Assembly: GCA_034530875.2 (NCBI GenBank)
Contig: JAVRCJ020000008.1
Span: 32,001 to 96,000 of the forward strand
Length of the DNA stretch: 64,000 nucleotides
DNA from: Nostoc sp. DedSLP01
GTDB taxonomy: Bacteria > Cyanobacteriota > Cyanobacteriia > Cyanobacteriales > Nostocaceae
Direction: 5' to 3'
Below are positions 3,922 to 61,127 of this stretch, in pieces. A program made the position numbers and the translations under genes. How positions within the stretch are numbered: position 1 is the first letter of the stretch; each line of letters opens with the position of its first letter. The notes below the pieces were generated by a model. The model had not been told where the DNA came from and ran no database searches. It saw nothing but the letters and a program-made list of their open reading frames with translations.

Positions 3922-6264
3922 ATGAAGTACGAAGCTGGAGATGAGTTTTTCCAAGGACTACCGCTGATTTTGGCAGGGCCAATTCTCAAGCATACTGAAC
4001 CTGGATCGGTAACGGTATGGCTGGCACTCAAACAGGCTTGTCAGGTAGAACTCAAGGTTTATGACACAACAAATGATGGTGGAGTCCTGGGAGAATGCTT
4101 ATTAGAGGGCGATCGCGCTACAGTTGCTTTGGGTAAGTATCTTCATGTAGTTGCTGTCACGGCTCGGTCTACAGATGGGCATTGCCTAACTAGCGGTAAC
4201 ATCTATGGATACGACCTCCAGTTGACTGTTGCTAACCAGGCTCCGCAAACGCTACAACAAGCATTATGCTCGAGCTCCCACCCTACAGCTAGCATCAGTT
4301 ACTTTGAGCATCAAAAACCAACTTTTACCCTACCATCCTGCCGCCTCAAAGATTTACAAATTGTCCATGCTTCCTGTCGTAAACCTCATGGTTCCGGGTT
4401 TGATGCCCTACCAATTCTCGACAGCCTAATTGAGGTATCTGCAAATCAAGTCCAACGCCGTCCTCAGCAGCTATTCCTGACTGGGGATCAAATTTATGGT
4501 GATGATGTAGCAGATCCATCGCTGTGGGTTGCGACTACTTTGGGAGATGTGCTGCTTGGTTGGGAGGAAGAATTGCCTGTGGGTGGAACGTACTGCACTC
4601 CCAAGGAACTGCCCCCAGGAGAACGAGCTAAAGTTGCTACCAATGAAGCTGGCTTGACCGCAGGATTACATAATAAATCTGAGAAAGTTGCCAGTCATTT
4701 GCTGAGTTTGGGGGAGTACTACGCTACTTATTTATTAGCGTGGTCGCCAGCGTGCTGGCCGGAGGCCTTCCCTAAGGGACGCCAAGTAACGCGCGATCGC
4801 CGCGCCATCAAAAACTGGAACCGAGCAGTCCAGGATTTGCGACAATTCATTTATACACTGGGTAAAGTGCGTCGCGCCCTGGCCAATATTCCTGTCTACA
4901 CCATCTTTGACGACCATGATGTGAGTGATGACTGGAATTTAAACCAAGCTTGGTGTTTGCGAGTGCTGGGGCGTCCCTTGGGGCGACGAGTAGTGCAAAA
5001 TGCTTTGTTAGCTTATACAGTGTTTCAAGCTTGGGGCAATACACCAGAGCAATTTACAGCAGGTCAACCTGGAGAAAAACTGCTGGCTGCTGCACAAACT
5101 TGGTCGGCTAAACAAGGGAAGGATACAACAGCTGATGAAGCGATCGCCCGTTATCTCGGTATGCCACCCAACGATCCCCGCACAAATTTACCTGTTTTAG
5201 TCCGAGACGGTTCGGTATTCATTTTAGCTCGACATTCTGAATCAATTACTTGGAATTACATAGTTAAAAGCGATTGTCATGAAGCGATCGTCTTGGATAC
5301 CCGTACTTGGCGGGGCTATCCAGCCGATCAAAAAGCGATCGCTCCACCAATGCTGCTATGTCCCAAAGCCTTTGAGCAACAACTAGTTTTGCCTTTACAA
5401 AAAATAGCCGAAGATCCTCACAATCAAGCCACATTTGTAATTGCACCCACTAATGTATTTGGGTCGCAAGTAATTGATTGGATTCACCATTGGAATTTAA
5501 AACAAGAGAAAGTTTTTTCTACCGATGTTGGTGATGCTTGGAACATTAATGTTGAAGCATTAGGGAAATTCTTGAATACTTTATTCGAGCAACGTCAAAA
5601 AGTGATTATTTTATCTGGAGATATTCACTACAGTTTTGCGGCTCGTTTGTCTTATGCACGTACTGATTCTCAACTGCGATCGGTTTTAGTACAGTTAACT
5701 TCTAGCGCTCTCAAAAATGAAGAAACACTAACGCGCTTGATTCATACACGAATGAAAGATTGGTTATTAGCAGAAAAGCGGCGATATTGGATTGGATGGA
5801 TGAATCCAAGTAATATGGTTGAAGTTTCTGGGAAAACATTACACCGCAATACTTTTACTGTCAAACGCTACCACAAAAATCGGCTAAACCAAAGCCAAGA
5901 ATTAACTAACCCTGACTGGTATTGCGTGCTGGAATGGATAATTCGACAAAGCGCTCAGACTTATAGCTGTACAACGGATTTATCATCGTTTATAGCTCCT
6001 TGGCAACGCGCAAAAAATGCCAAAATGCGATATTTACAGCCTCTAATGTTTTGGAAATTTCGTTGGTTTCAAGAAGGACGAGAAGTAGTTGGATTGAATA
6101 ACTTAGGTTTGGTTAAGTTTGAGTTACCAGATGCGAGTACTTATTACCAAATTATTCAAGATTCCTACTGGTTTTCTTCTTGGGAGCCAACCCAAATTGT
6201 TTACAGCCGTTTTGAAAGTGAGTTAACACCAAATCAATTATTGTTGCAGAATGTTAGATTTTAG
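3922..6264 (+). CDS. PhoD-like metallophosphoesterase, no obvious signal peptide
   Basis: Motifs HASCRKPHG, LTGDQIYGDDV, IFDDHDV, LDTRT, LSGDIHY. Confidence 0.8.
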   Translation: MKYEAGDEFFQGLPLILAGPILKHTEPGSVTVWLALKQACQVELKVYDTTNDGGVLGECLLEGDRATVALGKYLHVVAVTARSTDGHCLTSGNIYGYDLQLTVANQAPQTLQQALCSSSHPTASISYFEHQKPTFTLPSCRLKDLQIVHASCRKPHGSGFDALPILDSLIEVSANQVQRRPQQLFLTGDQIYGDDVADPSLWVATTLGDVLLGWEEELPVGGTYCTPKELPPGERAKVATNEAGLTAGLHNKSEKVASHLLSLGEYYATYLLAWSPACWPEAFPKGRQVTRDRRAIKNWNRAVQDLRQFIYTLGKVRRALANIPVYTIFDDHDVSDDWNLNQAWCLRVLGRPLGRRVVQNALLAYTVFQAWGNTPEQFTAGQPGEKLLAAAQTWSAKQGKDTTADEAIARYLGMPPNDPRTNLPVLVRDGSVFILARHSESITWNYIVKSDCHEAIVLDTRTWRGYPADQKAIAPPMLLCPKAFEQQLVLPLQKIAEDPHNQATFVIAPTNVFGSQVIDWIHHWNLKQEKVFSTDVGDAWNINVEALGKFLNTLFEQRQKVIILSGDIHYSFAARLSYARTDSQLRSVLVQLTSSALKNEETLTRLIHTRMKDWLLAEKRRYWIGWMNPSNMVEVSGKTLHRNTFTVKRYHKNRLNQSQELTNPDWYCVLEWIIRQSAQTYSCTTDLSSFIAPWQRAKNAKMRYLQPLMFWKFRWFQEGREVVGLNNLGLVKFELPDASTYYQIIQDSYWFSSWEPTQIVYSRFESELTPNQLLLQNVRF

Positions 6265-6407
6265 ATTTATCTTGCATAGCTCAATCCAAAATGGAAATTA
6301 GCAAATCTAAAATTGTTTGCCAACAATCGGCTTAACTGTGAAAATTTAAATTTGAGTCGTATGATGTGGGCATTCTAGATTGAACAAACATACTGGAGAG
6401 TGATTCT

Positions 6408-6881
6408 ATGTCTACGACTCGAATTAGTGCAACACTGTCACAAACAGACAGAGATGCTGTGTTGCAAGCAATAAAAACAATTAGAGAAAAACTACCCTTT
6501 TTGGTTGATTTGAGTCCTGATGACCGTAAAACTTTACCCAAGATGGGAGATAAGAGTCGGGCGTTTGTCAGCAAAGCATTACAGGTTGCAGCGCAGAATC
6601 CAGACTTTTTACCGCGTTCATTCAACCTTGATGAAATGCAAAAAGACGTGCAATTATATGAAGCGTTGTATCCGGTATTGTTGTCGTTGACACAATTGCA
6701 AGAACTCGTAGATGATACTTCTTTGGCAGTAGGCAGTGAAGCTTATGCAGCCGCGTTGCAAGTCTATAACTACGCCAAATCTAGCGGACAAGGGGCGGGT
6801 TTAGATGCAGTAGTCGTGGAAATGGGAAAACGATTTGCTCGTAAACCTGTAAAGGTCGAGTATGAAGAACCAATGTTGTAA
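6408..6881 (+). CDS. Conserved-looking hypothetical alpha-helical protein (157 aa)
   Basis: Clean ORF with RBS GGAGAG upstream; amphipathic helical pattern; no catalytic motif recognised. Confidence 0.8.
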   Translation: MSTTRISATLSQTDRDAVLQAIKTIREKLPFLVDLSPDDRKTLPKMGDKSRAFVSKALQVAAQNPDFLPRSFNLDEMQKDVQLYEALYPVLLSLTQLQELVDDTSLAVGSEAYAAALQVYNYAKSSGQGAGLDAVVVEMGKRFARKPVKVEYEEPML

Positions 6882-6899
6882 AAAATAAGTCGGTAGTTG

Positions 6900-7214
6900 C
6901 ATTTTTGAAGTATAACGTTGAGGCTCAGAACTTGAATGTTGGATTTAAAAACACGACATTCCGAGTTTTGAGCTTCATTTTTGGAGTTCAAAGGCTCGGC
7001 GTTCCAGCAAAAAGGTGCAACTTCCGAGTTCAAAGGCTCGACGTTCCAGCAAAAAGGTGCAACTTCCGAGTTCCGAGGCTCAGCGTTCGAGCAAAAAGGT
7101 GCAACTTTCGAGTTCAAAGGTGCAACGTTCAAGCAAAAAGGTGCAACTTCCGAGTTCAAAGGCTCAACGTTTGAGTAAAAAGGTGCAACTTCCGAGTTCA
7201 GAGGCTCATCTTTC
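6900..7214 (+). repeat. Tandem array of 21-bp units with 42-bp higher-order repeat
   Basis: 6984-7214 holds 5.5 copies of GAGTTCAAAGGCTCRRCGTTC-CAGCAAAAAGGTGCAACTTCC. About four more degenerate 21-mers lie at ~6900-6983. Confidence 0.93.
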
Positions 7215-9940
7215 GTTGGCATCAGCGACAAGCAACACTGCGACAAGAATATCAAGTAGATATTGCAGTGCATGATAATTACACCGTTTGGTTAGCATTA
7301 GTACAAGAGACAATGTTGGGTGGTTTGGATGAAACCCAGTGCCAAAAAGAATTTGCTTTACAAGCGGCTTATGTAGTGTTTATTCGTTTGCTGTTGATTC
7401 GAGTTTGTGAAGATAAGGAAATTTTCTCCCATAAGTTTGTATCAGATGGTGGAATCAAGCATTGGCAAGAAGATATTCAAAGATATTGGGTGTTTGCAAC
7501 TGGAAACCCCTATAGTCCTTTGCTGGACATGGCGTATCGCAATGCTCAAAATATTTATGCCCATTTTTTTACAGGGCGAGAGTTGTTTAATTGGTATCAG
7601 TTAGACAAGCAGCAATTAATTATGACATTACATCAACTCAGCCGTTTTAACTTTGCTGGAGTTGATTCAGATATTGTCGGCACTGTCTACAACACTTATG
7701 TTAACCGTAAAGAAAAACGCGAAAAAGGACAATATTACACACCTCCTGAAATTGTTAATTACATTCTTGATGAGGTGGGATATACAACCGGTACAGCAAT
7801 TATCGGTGCTAATAAACGCTTGATTGATCCTGCGTGTGGTAGTGGTTCGTTTTTAGTATCTGCTGCTAAACGTTTAGTGGCAGCTTATAAAGGTAATGCT
7901 CAACAAATAGAAGATCCGGCGGCGGTATTGGAACGGGTACAGAATAATTTATATGGATTTGATTTAAATCCCTTTGCTTGTTATTTAGCAGAGGTAAATT
8001 TACTTATTCAAGTTTTGGATTTGGTGAAACTTGCCTATGAAAAAGGACAGCAACAACCAATCCAGCGATTTAATATTTATAACGTGGATGCTCTAGCGCG
8101 TCCCACTGGAACATATCGCTATGCACTATTTAACACACTGATTGCTGAAGAAAGCGATCAGGTAGATCAAATTAAAAGTCGTGCGCCTAATACGCCCTAT
8201 GCCAATGGTTTTGCATTTGTTGTAGCAAATCCTCCCTATGGGGCAAAACTCAGTGATTTTTATAAAGATATCCTACGAGCAGATTATGCAGATGTATTTT
8301 ATGGTAGACCTGATACGTATACCTTCTTCCTAAAATTAGGAATTGAATGTTTAGCAACTCATGGTAGGCTCGGTTTTATTACACCCAACACATATTTAAT
8401 GGGAATAAATACTGTTGCTCTACGTAGAGAGCTAATGAGAACAGCAAGAATTGAGCAGATTGTCGATTTACCTCAAGGCATTTGGCCAGATGCTAACGTA
8501 GACTGTGTATTGATATTCTTGACGGAAGAATATAAGGAAGAACATCGTAAATCACAACAAGTAAAAATTAATTTATTAAATATACGAGATACTTTAGATA
8601 AGCTTACAACACGCTCTTGGGCTGAAGTTTTAGAACAGAACCAGGCTCAATGGATGAACCATCTAAAATGTGAAATTAATATTCGCTATGATACATTATT
8701 ACAAAAAATTGAAGAGGCTTGCCAGCTAGCTTGTAATAATGGGGATACTCCAAAAGTTATAAGACTAGATGATATTACATTTATCAATAGAGGAGTCGAG
8801 CCTTACCATTCTCGTGAACAAGGTCGTTCTGGTATATACATTAAACCTCAAAGAGAACTTACTGCTAATGAACAAAATTGGAAACCATTAATTGATAGTA
8901 CTGGATTTGTGGGACGCTATGAGTTGCGTTGGGGCAAATCTAGACCACATCTAAATTATGGGAATTGGCTTTACAGAGCTTACGAACCAAAATTTTATGA
9001 ATCACCTAAACTACTTGTTCAATCTATACGTAATCGCGCTTTAAAACGCAGGCTTGTGGCAACATACGATGATAAAAAATTCTATAATCGCCACAATTTT
9101 AACAATATTATTGCAGATGAGTCTAAATTGTATAATTTAAAATATATTCTAGCACTATTTAACTCATCAGTATTAAATTACTGGTACAGTAGAAGATTTG
9201 AAAATGTCAATATTAACCCATCATATTTTCGCCAACTACCTATCTATCCTGCTGATGCTGAAATACAAGCCGAATTTGTGGAATTAGTAGACCAGATATT
9301 GGCAAAAAATGCAACAATTAATCAACTAAGAGAGCAGGGATACACTATTAGACGTAAACGTGATGGAAGTAAACTTATTGAAGTCCCATTTAATCACTTG
9401 CTAGTTGAAATTCAACAAGCCAATCCCAACTTTTCAACGTTGAGTTTATTTGATGCCAAAGCCGCACAACTTTTTAGCATACCAGAAAGTTGTAATCTTC
9501 AGGAAACCATTAGTAGTAACGTTTTTATTCCAACCCAATATCCAAATACAGTTGTTTTACGCCATAAAAAACTTTGGTTAGAAGTCCCTGATGAGCATGT
9601 AAGGAGATTTCTACTAGGTTATTTAAAAAGTCCTCTCTGGCAAGGCAAAAATTGGGATCAAATTAAGAACTCAGCGCAAATTCCCGCAGAAGTTAGCGAT
9701 CGCAATTTCTTCTTTGCTACAGAAGAACAAAAGAAGGCTGAGATTCAAACTTTACTAGATGAAGTAGCCCAAATTGATGCAGAAATTGATGAAAAAGTGC
9801 TTGACCTTTACGGCATTATAAATCCAGCAGATAGACAACGCATCTTAGGTAGCGCACCAATAGTTGAAGAGGAAGAAGGGAATCAAGACACAATAGAAGC
9901 CGAAAATGGACAAGATGAAACCAATATTGAATCAGAATAA
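7214..9940 (+). CDS. N6-adenine DNA methyltransferase of type IIG/Eco57I-like R-M architecture, apparently N-terminally truncated
   Basis: GQYYTP, DPACGSG, YGFDLNP, VVANPPY, LGFITPN and a TaqI_C-like TRD (PKLLVQSIR...YILALFNSSVLNYWY). The frame is open upstream of GTG 7268 into the array (RWHQRQATLRQEYQVDIAV). Confidence 0.85.
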   Translation, partial: RWHQRQATLRQEYQVDIAVHDNYTVWLALVQETMLGGLDETQCQKEFALQAAYVVFIRLLLIRVCEDKEIFSHKFVSDGGIKHWQEDIQRYWVFATGNPYSPLLDMAYRNAQNIYAHFFTGRELFNWYQLDKQQLIMTLHQLSRFNFAGVDSDIVGTVYNTYVNRKEKREKGQYYTPPEIVNYILDEVGYTTGTAIIGANKRLIDPACGSGSFLVSAAKRLVAAYKGNAQQIEDPAAVLERVQNNLYGFDLNPFACYLAEVNLLIQVLDLVKLAYEKGQQQPIQRFNIYNVDALARPTGTYRYALFNTLIAEESDQVDQIKSRAPNTPYANGFAFVVANPPYGAKLSDFYKDILRADYADVFYGRPDTYTFFLKLGIECLATHGRLGFITPNTYLMGINTVALRRELMRTARIEQIVDLPQGIWPDANVDCVLIFLTEEYKEEHRKSQQVKINLLNIRDTLDKLTTRSWAEVLEQNQAQWMNHLKCEINIRYDTLLQKIEEACQLACNNGDTPKVIRLDDITFINRGVEPYHSREQGRSGIYIKPQRELTANEQNWKPLIDSTGFVGRYELRWGKSRPHLNYGNWLYRAYEPKFYESPKLLVQSIRNRALKRRLVATYDDKKFYNRHNFNNIIADESKLYNLKYILALFNSSVLNYWYSRRFENVNINPSYFRQLPIYPADAEIQAEFVELVDQILAKNATINQLREQGYTIRRKRDGSKLIEVPFNHLLVEIQQANPNFSTLSLFDAKAAQLFSIPESCNLQETISSNVFIPTQYPNTVVLRHKKLWLEVPDEHVRRFLLGYLKSPLWQGKNWDQIKNSAQIPAEVSDRNFFFATEEQKKAEIQTLLDEVAQIDAEIDEKVLDLYGIINPADRQRILGSAPIVEEEEGNQDTIEAENGQDETNIESE

Positions 9941-44553: not shown

Positions 44554-44776
44554 AGACTTGAGTATTTCAAAATACTACTTTATCCATCCTCTTATCTATG
44601 AATACAGTACAGGTAGCTTAAAGTTATCAGTAAGATTTTGCATCTTCAATCCTCCACCACACACAGTAACAAATCGAACAAATCGCCAATTACTAGAAAA
44701 TATTTTGTATTTTGCTTATTTTGGCAAATTTCTCAGCAATCATATCTAAAAGATGTCGTATTTATCAATACAAATT

Positions 44777-44945
44777 TAGTCATTAGTTATTAGTCATTAG
44801 TCATTGGTCATTAGTCATTAGTCATTAGTCATTAGTCATTAGTCATTAGTCATTAGTCATTATTTTTTTCTTCCCCTGCCTCCTGTGCCTCCTCTGCCCC
44901 CTCTGCTCCCCCTGCCTCCTGTGCCTCCTGTGCCTCCCCTGCCCT
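44777..44945. repeat. STRR tract (TTAGTCA)n followed by a 9-bp-period CCTCCTGTG/CCCCTGC tract
   Basis: About 12 heptamer copies at 44777-44862; pyrimidine-rich 9-mers at 44873-44945. Confidence 0.9.
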
Positions 44946-58874: not shown

Positions 58875-61127
58875 ATGACCCTAGAACTGACTGATTGGGA
58901 TAAGGATTTACCATCAGAAATAAATGAAGAATATCAAGCCTTAGTCCGCACACTGAATTTTACAGAAGGATTTGGTTTATTATTTGTCCGTTGCTCTCCG
59001 GCAGAGGGTGTGCATTTAATTACTAAAGTAAAAGAAAATATTACAAATAAAAATATCGAAGTTATACGGCTGGAGCAAGCTGTCACTAATTTATATGAAA
59101 TAATTGATTCTTTAGAAAATAAAGAAAAGATAAATATTTTATTTATCACAGGATTAGAGCATTCTTTTTATGAATATGAAGAATGCAAAAGATTAATGGG
59201 GTGGAATAGTAGAGATATTTATTCATATAGTTGGAAGGGTGTACCACCTGTTTTAATTAACCTCAACCAACAGCGAGAACGGTTGAAGGAGAAATTTAAT
59301 ATCTGTTTTGTGTTCTTGTTACCGATATTTGCAATTAAATATTTTATTCAACGTGCCCCAGACTTTTTTGACTGGCGTTCTGGATTGTTTGAATTTCCAA
59401 TAGATTCAGAAACTTTAGAAAAAGAATCATCACGTATTATTAAGGATGCAGATGATGAAAAATATCTCACTTTAACAAGAGAAGGAAGAACTCAAGAAAT
59501 AATAGCAATTCAAGAATTAATAGCAGAAGATAATCAAACACCCGATCGCCAATATGATTTACTGATTAACTTGGGAAAATTACAGTCTGCTGGAGAAGAA
59601 TATTACCAAGGTTATGAAGAAGCAATCGCTTCCTATATCAAAGCAGTAGAAATTAAACCTAATGAGTACCAAGCTTGGTACAACCTGGGGTATGCCTTAG
59701 GGAAAATAGGACACAATGAAGAAGCTATCGCATCCTACGACCAAGCACTACAAATTCACTCAGATGATTACTATGCTTGGAAAAGTCGGGGTATTACATT
59801 GGAAGAATTGGGTAGATATGAAGAAGCACTCATTAGCCTAGACAAAGCTTTAGAATTAGAACCTAAGGATGACTTGTCTGACCTTTATTATGTCTGGAAA
59901 TCGCGAGGCATTATACTTTTTAAACTGGATAGATACGAAGAAGCGATCGCCTCCTATGACAAGGCACTATCAATTCAACCTGATGACCACAAAGTTTGGA
60001 ACTTACGAGGGCTTGCACTCTATCAATTAGGACGCTATGAAGAAGCAATTGCCTCTTGTGATAAGGTAGTAGCGATTAAACATGACGATCATCTTGCTTG
60101 GTACTTGCGGGGTAATGCATTACAGAATTTAGGACGCAATGAAGAAGCGATTTCCTCCTTTGACAATGTACTGAAATTTAACCCAGATAAACATGAAGCT
60201 TGGAAAGACCGGGGTATTGCGCTACGTAATTTAGGAAGCTATGAAGAAGCGATCGCATCCTACGACAAAGCACTGTCAATTCGACCTGATGACTGCATAG
60301 CTTGGATCTGGCGAGGGATTACACTCTATCAATTAGGACGCAATGAAGAAGCGATTTCCTCCTTTGACAAGGCAGTAGTGATTAAACCTGACGATCATCT
60401 TGCTTGGTACTTTCAGGGTAATGCATTACGGAATTTAGGACGCAATGAAGAAGCGATTTCCTCCTTTGACAATGCACTGAAATTTAACCCAGATAATGAA
60501 GCTTGGAACGGCCGGGGTATTGCGCTACGTAATTTAGGAAGCTATGAAGAAGCGATCGCATCCCACAACAAGGCTTTGGAAATTCAACCTGATGACCATG
60601 AAGCTTGTTACAACTTGGGAATTGCGCTATTTAAATTAGGACGCGATGAAGAAGCGATCGCTTCCTATGACCAAGCACTGTCAATTCAACCTGATGACCA
60701 TATAGTTTGGAGCTTGCGAGGGCTTGCGCTCTATGAATTAGGACACAATGAAGAAGCGATCGCTTCCTATGACCAAGCCCTGTCAATTCAACCTGATAAC
60801 CACATAACTTGGTACATCCGGGGGATTGTGCTACAGAATTTAGGACGCAATGAACAAGCGATCGCCAGCTATGACAAAGCCTTGGAATTTAAACCAGATG
60901 ACCACCTAGCTTGGAACAACCGGGGGAATGCGCTATTTAATTTAGGACGCAATGAACAAGCGATCGCATCCTATGACCAAGCACTAAAAATTAAACCTGA
61001 TGACTACGAGGTTTGGAATCACCGGGGCAATGCACTACGAGATTTAGGACGCAATGAAGAAGCACTCGCATCCTATGACCAAGCACTAAAAATTAAATCT
61101 GATTTCACTCGTGACAGGTTAGAGTGA
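58875..61127 (+). CDS. TPR protein with N-terminal degenerate NTPase-like domain
   Basis: LN.QRE...APDFFDWRSG N-terminal domain followed by about 15 34-aa TPRs (AW..RG..L..LGR.EEAIASYDKAL). Confidence 0.9.
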   Translation: MTLELTDWDKDLPSEINEEYQALVRTLNFTEGFGLLFVRCSPAEGVHLITKVKENITNKNIEVIRLEQAVTNLYEIIDSLENKEKINILFITGLEHSFYEYEECKRLMGWNSRDIYSYSWKGVPPVLINLNQQRERLKEKFNICFVFLLPIFAIKYFIQRAPDFFDWRSGLFEFPIDSETLEKESSRIIKDADDEKYLTLTREGRTQEIIAIQELIAEDNQTPDRQYDLLINLGKLQSAGEEYYQGYEEAIASYIKAVEIKPNEYQAWYNLGYALGKIGHNEEAIASYDQALQIHSDDYYAWKSRGITLEELGRYEEALISLDKALELEPKDDLSDLYYVWKSRGIILFKLDRYEEAIASYDKALSIQPDDHKVWNLRGLALYQLGRYEEAIASCDKVVAIKHDDHLAWYLRGNALQNLGRNEEAISSFDNVLKFNPDKHEAWKDRGIALRNLGSYEEAIASYDKALSIRPDDCIAWIWRGITLYQLGRNEEAISSFDKAVVIKPDDHLAWYFQGNALRNLGRNEEAISSFDNALKFNPDNEAWNGRGIALRNLGSYEEAIASHNKALEIQPDDHEACYNLGIALFKLGRDEEAIASYDQALSIQPDDHIVWSLRGLALYELGHNEEAIASYDQALSIQPDNHITWYIRGIVLQNLGRNEQAIASYDKALEFKPDDHLAWNNRGNALFNLGRNEQAIASYDQALKIKPDDYEVWNHRGNALRDLGRNEEALASYDQALKIKSDFTRDRLE

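Follow-up and report, generated by a model that had tools for sequence, protein, structure and literature searches.

An unannotated family of small helical proteins and its adjoining 21-bp tandem arrays in Nostocaceae genomes

Within a 64,000-nucleotide stretch of Nostoc DNA (the window), whose closest homologs are likewise from Nostoc, a gene for a 157-aa helical protein, here called family 1, and the tandem array of 21-bp units that adjoins it form a conserved module. The coupling of gene and array holds across many clades, the unit diverges along with the protein, and further arrays lacking such a gene beside them (orphans) occur in both orientations and are passed on at fixed positions. 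How the short repeats of cyanobacterial genomes, both tandem and dispersed, arise and spread has long been an open question, and one class of these repeats is now tied, in cis and across genomes, to an unannotated family of 4,342 clusters at 50% identity, a tie that makes the question of repeat spread experimentally testable. We rate the pairing of protein and array as new and as fitting no known system compared here, with the proviso that the SDR catalogue may list some of the units; our literature search, with preprint supplements and most subscription papers outside it, found no earlier description of the link.

The window locus and its homologs

The family 1 ORF occupies positions 6408 to 6881 of the plus strand and is preceded, 7 nt 5' of its ATG, by a Shine-Dalgarno-like GGAGAG (6395 to 6400), in agreement with the first-pass annotation of this DNA, which had described a 157-aa helical ORF with its own ribosome-binding site; the structure prediction contains helices only, a long one spanning residues 74 to 125, and the protein has a basic end. 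Closer inspection of the array bore out the eleven alternating A and B units and four degenerate ones that had been claimed and refined their register, which begins at the stop codon itself (6879), as it does in many homologs. Degenerate leader units run from there to 6983 on the plus strand, four of them within 6900 to 6983, and a similar leader is present in genome G228. Eleven 21-mers in the order ABABABABABA follow at 6984 to 7214 and give a 42-bp higher-order repeat (TRF period 42, 5.4 copies, 89% matches, score 345), in which unit 7, at 7110, is indeed the A/B chimera noticed at first pass. The units are homogenised and unique spacers are absent, so the earlier statement that this is not a CRISPR array stands. 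The array is beyond chance because lag-21/42 identity of at least 0.8 is rare in random ORF-downstream windows of the source genome (8 of 1,500), and Rfam returned no match to it (best E 0.59).

We assessed coupling in 121 loci kept from 190 matches, with near-duplicates, loci with less than 350 nt downstream and seven named duplicates or fragments excluded. With periodicity defined as lag-21/42 identity of at least 0.6 over 84 nt, an array was observed downstream of the gene in 89 of the 121 loci, compared with 3 of 113 regions upstream of it and 23 of 1,500 random windows taken downstream of ORFs, which supports the original proposal of a single gene-array module and runs against the possibility that homologs generally lack the array. 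The downstream lag profile peaks at 21 and 42 only, with slight rises at multiples of 7. Array orientation is fixed within each clade, the degenerate leader is conserved, and the gene-adjacent arrays measured reach at most about 370 bp. Eleven of the 121 loci, including L095, L107 and L162, score below 0.5. At one locus (L155, 1505 to 3309) the gene is tandemly duplicated and the array has a period of 22 bases. The coupling loci are nearly all cyanobacterial, and breadth beyond cyanobacteria rests on very few loci; one GC-rich contig within a cyanobacterial assembly (L096, G100 C108), probably a contaminant, carries a proteobacterial-type homolog with a 21-bp array of 12 units, and a Thiodictyon plasmid copy of the gene showed no array behind it by eye.

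When the downstream regions of homologs were compared, as had been suggested at first pass, the 21-nt period was retained while the unit sequence diverged by protein clade. The source genome encodes four paralogs that are 43-68% identical to the window protein, and all four have an array, each of a different sequence and one of them short and degenerate. Across 75 loci, array similarity follows protein identity (Spearman 0.70, the pairs not being independent), and the fraction of 9-mers common to two arrays rises from 0.002 for proteins less than 50% identical to 0.28 for those more than 85% identical. Next to proteins sharing no more than about 43% identity, the period stays and the unit is a different sequence. 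Paralogs paired with different 21-mers could serve as natural specificity swaps.

The profile search that returned the 4,342 clusters extended to an E-value of 0.001, and among the 150 clusters listed lengths were mostly 150-170 aa. The corresponding ESM Atlas clusters are unnamed, with Cyanobacteriota, Pseudomonadota and Bacteroidota foremost, and the ESM Atlas search gave no usable named match; an automatic label of methyl-accepting chemotaxis protein was rejected, Pfam support being absent. The window protein itself had zero matches in Pfam, NCBIfam and PADLOC and a best E of 0.12 against PDB sequences. In 117 diverse sequences the near-invariant residues are M1, F31, L32, L35, G47, F53, P69, D80, L83, L87, T104 and Y120, among which we saw no known catalytic motif and neither a conserved His pair nor an HUH motif; these residues look structural. 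An AlphaFold2 monomer model built from 11 sequences (pLDDT 80, pTM 0.56) predicted five helices, one of 52 residues. Foldseek found nothing at E below 1 with this model, and the best VIA-align hit (Z 5.7, to be read with the monomer pTM of 0.56) covered the long helix only. The fold searches recovered only generic long helices, with no winged-helix-turn-helix or ribbon-helix-helix match recognised, and for the predicted model this outcome is no evidence of a new fold. Of 8,000 candidates scored for longer forms, two matched, and neither looked convincingly like a fusion. The gene is distributed patchily, being present in 10 of 151 cyanobacterial genomes and in 27 of 61 Nostocaceae genomes (full length in 25); it was found on 1 of 72,556 plasmids, the Thiodictyon copy, and was absent from phage records and IMG/VR.

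Orphan arrays and two further families

A scan of the source genome yielded 83 lag-21/42 tracts, of which 24 were set aside by hand as coding repeats or marginal cases, leaving 59 non-coding 21/42-bp tracts that are mostly orphans, a feature that could not be seen at first pass. Fifty-three of these resemble gene-adjacent array types (33 of family 1, one of them weakly, 8 of family 2 and 12 of family 3), and by hand count only 10 of the 53 adjoin a gene of families 1 to 3. The family-1-type orphans that lie between co-directional genes are divided, again by hand count, into 11 sense and 9 antisense, and most orphans flank ordinary genes. Six 21-bp tracts fall outside the three families (G000 C4:336859, C6:152625, C7:243593, C14:33143 and C14:203368-203578), and given these, partner genes beyond families 1 to 3 may exist. 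At one orphan site, whose flanks are hlyD-like and hlyB-like by eye, the array is present in 11 of 13 alignable Nostoc genomes, disrupted in one of the 11, and the other two carry heptamer repeats only; three more loci were incomplete and stand outside the 13. The array at this site is inherited, similar in length, homogenised differently in each strain and situated among heptamer repeats.

We examined co-occurrence in a set of 61 Nostocaceae genomes with roughly one genome per genus, which divides into 25 that carry the gene at full length and 36 that do not. Arrays of the window type were observed in 21 of the 25 gene-positive genomes and 1 of the 36 gene-negative ones (Fisher p 2e-11, kin not being independent), and each of those 21 genomes has at least one orphan. 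The second array type was observed in 22 of 25 and 3 of 36 genomes, respectively, and either type in 24 of 25 and 4 of 36, with the same non-independence of kin. Orphan arrays are nearly confined to gene-carrying genomes. Specificity of array type for the cognate clade is loose, the second type being found in 16 of the 17 genomes that carry the cognate clade of the gene (median 9 matches) and also in 6 of 8 genomes with the window's clade only (median 3 matches).

Part of this co-occurrence could stem from ancestry common to large-genome Nostocaceae. Extending this thought, the arrays might be neutral minisatellites spread by host recombination, with the gene an ancient neighbour and both accumulating in large, repeat-rich genomes. 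The non-independence of kin, the loose specificity, the orphan site among heptamers with its strain-specific homogenisation, and genome G152, which has seven array matches and no gene, are all consistent with this reading. We nonetheless consider it quite unlikely: large gene-negative genomes of 9-12 Mb (G165, G168, G173, G192, G195 and G198) contain neither array type, gene-adjacent arrays stay within about 370 bp, and the period persists beside proteins as little as about 43% identical where the unit has been replaced.

The neighbours of orphan arrays led to two further unnamed helical families of 120-130-aa proteins. Family 2 is represented by L194 1483-1875 (-), L195 1763-2122 (+), L196 1300-1689 (-) and L197 1399-1782 (-), basic proteins of 120-131 aa with 3-13 matches per positive genome and 21/42- or 40/41-bp arrays. 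These arrays precede the gene in 19 of 33 loci and follow it in none of the 33; some have periods of 40-41. The 7 of 151 genomes with strong family 2 matches all carry family 1. Three viral matches to family 2 were apparently due to chance, lying in a tape-measure-like protein in the one of the three inspected. Family 3 comprises L198 1692-2057 (+) and L199 1878-2249 (+), proteins of 122-124 aa with 21-bp arrays upstream in both cases, and about ten family-3-type orphan arrays are present in the source genome. Between families 2 and 3 there is a weak match at the C-terminus (E 4e-4), and comparisons of family 1 with either gave only E 0.019-0.62. From these sequences we tentatively propose, as something we doubt rather more than we believe, that a widespread, hitherto undescribed class of systems pairs a protein with a minisatellite, in which at least three unnamed small helical families would each recognise a cognate 21-bp array in phase with the helix and, without being a known transposase, drive copying of it to dozens of places in the chromosome. 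Were this so, the arrays would be selfish DNA of a new kind or else a bacterial satellite-like layer that organises or rearranges the chromosome, with re-codable protein-DNA pairs.

Nature of the array and a possible role for the protein

Self-complementarity exceeds that of shuffled sequences in 27 of 31 non-redundant units (mean z 1.56), and the units are quasi-palindromic. DNA turns once every 10.5 bp, and the repeats, with lags of 21 and 42, are spaced by integral helical turns. Unit length is not strictly kept: some arrays contain units of 20-22 bases, 22-base units or periods of 43, 64 or 85 occur in L155, L172 and L092, single-base indels are found, and some units have a weak 7-nt sub-period. 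Given the quasi-palindromic units, the orphans in both orientations and the 20-22-base units, a helically phased DNA site is favoured over an RNA or a peptide; DNA also fits best because the two-turn period is held despite sequence change, 27 of 31 units are quasi-dyads and the arrays of families 2 and 3 lie upstream. The first-pass annotation had offered the array as an RNA or DNA ligand of the protein, and of its two analogies the iteron-like DNA fits better and the type III antitoxin RNA less well.

We favour, with confidence a little short of even, the reading that the family 1 protein is a sequence-selective DNA binder, probably an oligomer, that coats the array and promotes the spread or upkeep of similar arrays. 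The oligomer would coat the 21-bp array beside its own gene, and binding would promote similar arrays at dozens of intergenic sites. The bound DNA would be double-stranded, as suggested by a 21-bp period equal to two helical turns and by the quasi-palindromic units. In the model the 52-residue helix spans about 78 angstrom, compared with 71 angstrom for 21 bp, so an antiparallel dimer of the long helix could bridge neighbouring units. With less assurance, we suggest that new orphans might arise as copies of existing arrays, made by the host's enzymes of recombination or repair, and that the protein might be a recognition factor and not a catalyst. The arrays may benefit the cell through chromosome organisation, repression or rearrangement hot spots, or the module may be selfish; either may hold. 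If binding is real, the protein, compact at 157 aa and with a 21-bp target open to re-coding, would constitute a new DNA-recognition scaffold. The lack of a recognised DNA-binding fold, the loose type specificity, G152, the 11 of 121 low-scoring loci and the Thiodictyon copy with no array seen by eye count against the favoured reading.

Some of the same observations would also suit an array that works as RNA, transcribed along with the gene and acting, once the protein binds it, as an antitoxin, a sponge or a template for orphan copies. The array begins at the stop codon in an orientation fixed for each clade, no terminator-like site was found between gene and array, arrays fold slightly better than shuffled sequences (mean z -1.1), the degenerate leader is conserved and the protein has a basic tail. 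However, only 20 of 31 units fold better on the sense strand, the orphans are split between the two orientations (11 versus 9), the arrays of families 2 and 3 are upstream and Rfam has no match; a toxin would also be unlikely to tolerate the gene copies that exist without a clear array. An RNA role is thus possible and not favoured, and we regard it as unlikely, if well above negligible.

We give very little credence to a further reading, in which translation of the array would yield a peptide of 7-residue repeats acting as a partner of the helical protein. Twenty-one nucleotides make seven codons, ORFs of 65-167 aa cross the window array, and one orphan of the second paralog's array type (G000 C15:50311-50747) lies in frame within a 1,617-aa ORF; yet open frames per strand number 1.9 against a null of 1.75, inspection by eye of 150 A and 122 B units showed no codon-position pattern, indels of one base and units of 22 are present, and array translations have no peptide in common across clades. 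The array is non-coding.

Known systems and the surrounding genes

Plasmid iterons and the parC and tubC centromere arrays are direct repeats about two helical turns apart beside the gene for a small binding protein. The present arrays have the same spacing and adjoin the gene for a small putative binding protein; in contrast to those systems, they lie on the chromosome, orphans number in the dozens, the neighbours examined offer no Rep or partition NTPase partner, the gene was found on 1 of 72,556 plasmids and in no phage record, and there is no winged-helix or ribbon-helix-helix match. In type III toxin-antitoxin systems (ToxIN, CptIN, TenpIN) a tandem array lies upstream of the toxin gene and is followed by a terminator. 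Here too a small protein gene sits beside a short tandem array, but the array is downstream (89/121; upstream 3/113) with no terminator-like site, the all-helical protein has no ToxN/MazF match in Pfam, NCBIfam, PADLOC or PDB sequences, Rfam gives no antitoxin match, and orphans are abundant. The STRR heptamers and SDR of cyanobacteria are dispersed intergenic repeats in Nostoc, and the present arrays share this dispersal, one orphan site between heptamer arrays and a weak 7-nt sub-period, while differing as 21/42-bp tandem arrays linked to a specific protein family. Heptamer repeats in cyanobacteria are described in PMC4679880.

As with CRISPR, TIGR-Tas and VIPR, a periodic non-coding array adjoins a conserved protein (10.64898/2026.10.21.760802); unlike them, its units are homogenised, with no unique spacers or variable segments. 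The accessible portion of that guide-array survey names periods of 60-79, 18 and 5 nt, describes the exclusion of clusters combining a multiple-of-3 period with a lag 3 peak, and contains no mention of the present gene-array system (10.64898/2026.10.21.760802). The type III toxin-antitoxin, iteron/partition and guide-array systems each differ from it in at least one defining respect.

The genomic pattern most resembles that of RAYTs and REPINs, which are IS200-like tyrosine transposases and inverted doublets, respectively (PMC3116915). There as here, each paralog is adjoined by its own repeat flavour, cognate copies are dispersed intergenically, gene and repeat co-evolve, and the gene resides on the chromosome and seldom on mobile elements (PMC3116915). 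By this analogy the likeness is one of pattern, and membership fails on both enzyme and repeat organisation: unlike RAYTs, family 1 has no Pfam or NCBIfam match, no conserved His pair and an all-helical model, and unlike REPINs, the repeats are head-to-tail 21-mers that are only quasi-palindromic and form no inverted doublets. In one clade with degenerate arrays (L042, L048, L052, L063, L068, L088 and L170) an ORF of about 200 aa lies downstream of the gene; the one copy scanned had no Pfam match, and only an N-terminal motif makes the ORF look RAYT-like.

Upstream neighbours are often conserved within a clade, and in the window a PhoD-like gene (3922 to 6264, plus strand), which we give for context only, is the conserved upstream neighbour in 18 related loci. 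Downstream neighbours differ even between close relatives and include NACHT/STAND, caspase-nSTAND, restriction-modification and Uma2-like genes (37 of 111 scanned); no conserved downstream partner, Rep or partition NTPase was observed, with one ParA-like gene among the 37 neighbours scanned. In the window the following gene (7268 to 9940, plus strand), a neighbouring cargo outside the module, encodes an N6-adenine methyltransferase/TaqI_C protein that lacks about 366 N-terminal codons relative to its full-length form in G228, including a PD..E.K-like (nuclease-like) stretch; judged from sequence, this truncated restriction-modification gene is likely a solo methyltransferase. The observation concerns window positions 7268 to 9940 together with L270 4250-5828 (-). 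By eye, comparison with G228 places an inferred deletion junction at 7206 to 7216 (plus strand), between the last array unit and an internal restriction-modification codon, and this one case suggests that an array may serve as a deletion end point. We rejected the reading in which the array would be the methyltransferase's missing N-terminus: in G228 the full-length gene begins with an ATG of its own and is free of repeats, and a short array of the same type lies directly 5' of it, so the array is not the relic of a repeat-protein gene that the first-pass annotation had allowed for.

That annotation had also suggested a cassette travelling with defence loci, and the array might accordingly be a recombination site that swaps downstream defence cargo. 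The variable downstream genes, with their NACHT/STAND, caspase-nSTAND and restriction-modification members, and the methyltransferase cut at the last array unit are in line with such an association. The suggestion of a travelling cassette is only partly borne out, with no phage copies found and 1 of 72,556 plasmids, and as an account of the array we consider the cassette highly unlikely: PADLOC gave no match, the majority of orphans border ordinary genes, neither a junction motif nor a recombinase was seen, and NACHT genes are in any case frequent in the variable regions of Nostoc.

Elsewhere in the window, positions 59937 to 61103 hold a 102-bp TPR-like coding repeat with an in-frame TGA in its TRF consensus, and this gene may be interrupted. 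Adjacent 7-bp and 9-bp tandem arrays of the ordinary STRR type lie at 44776 to 44943.
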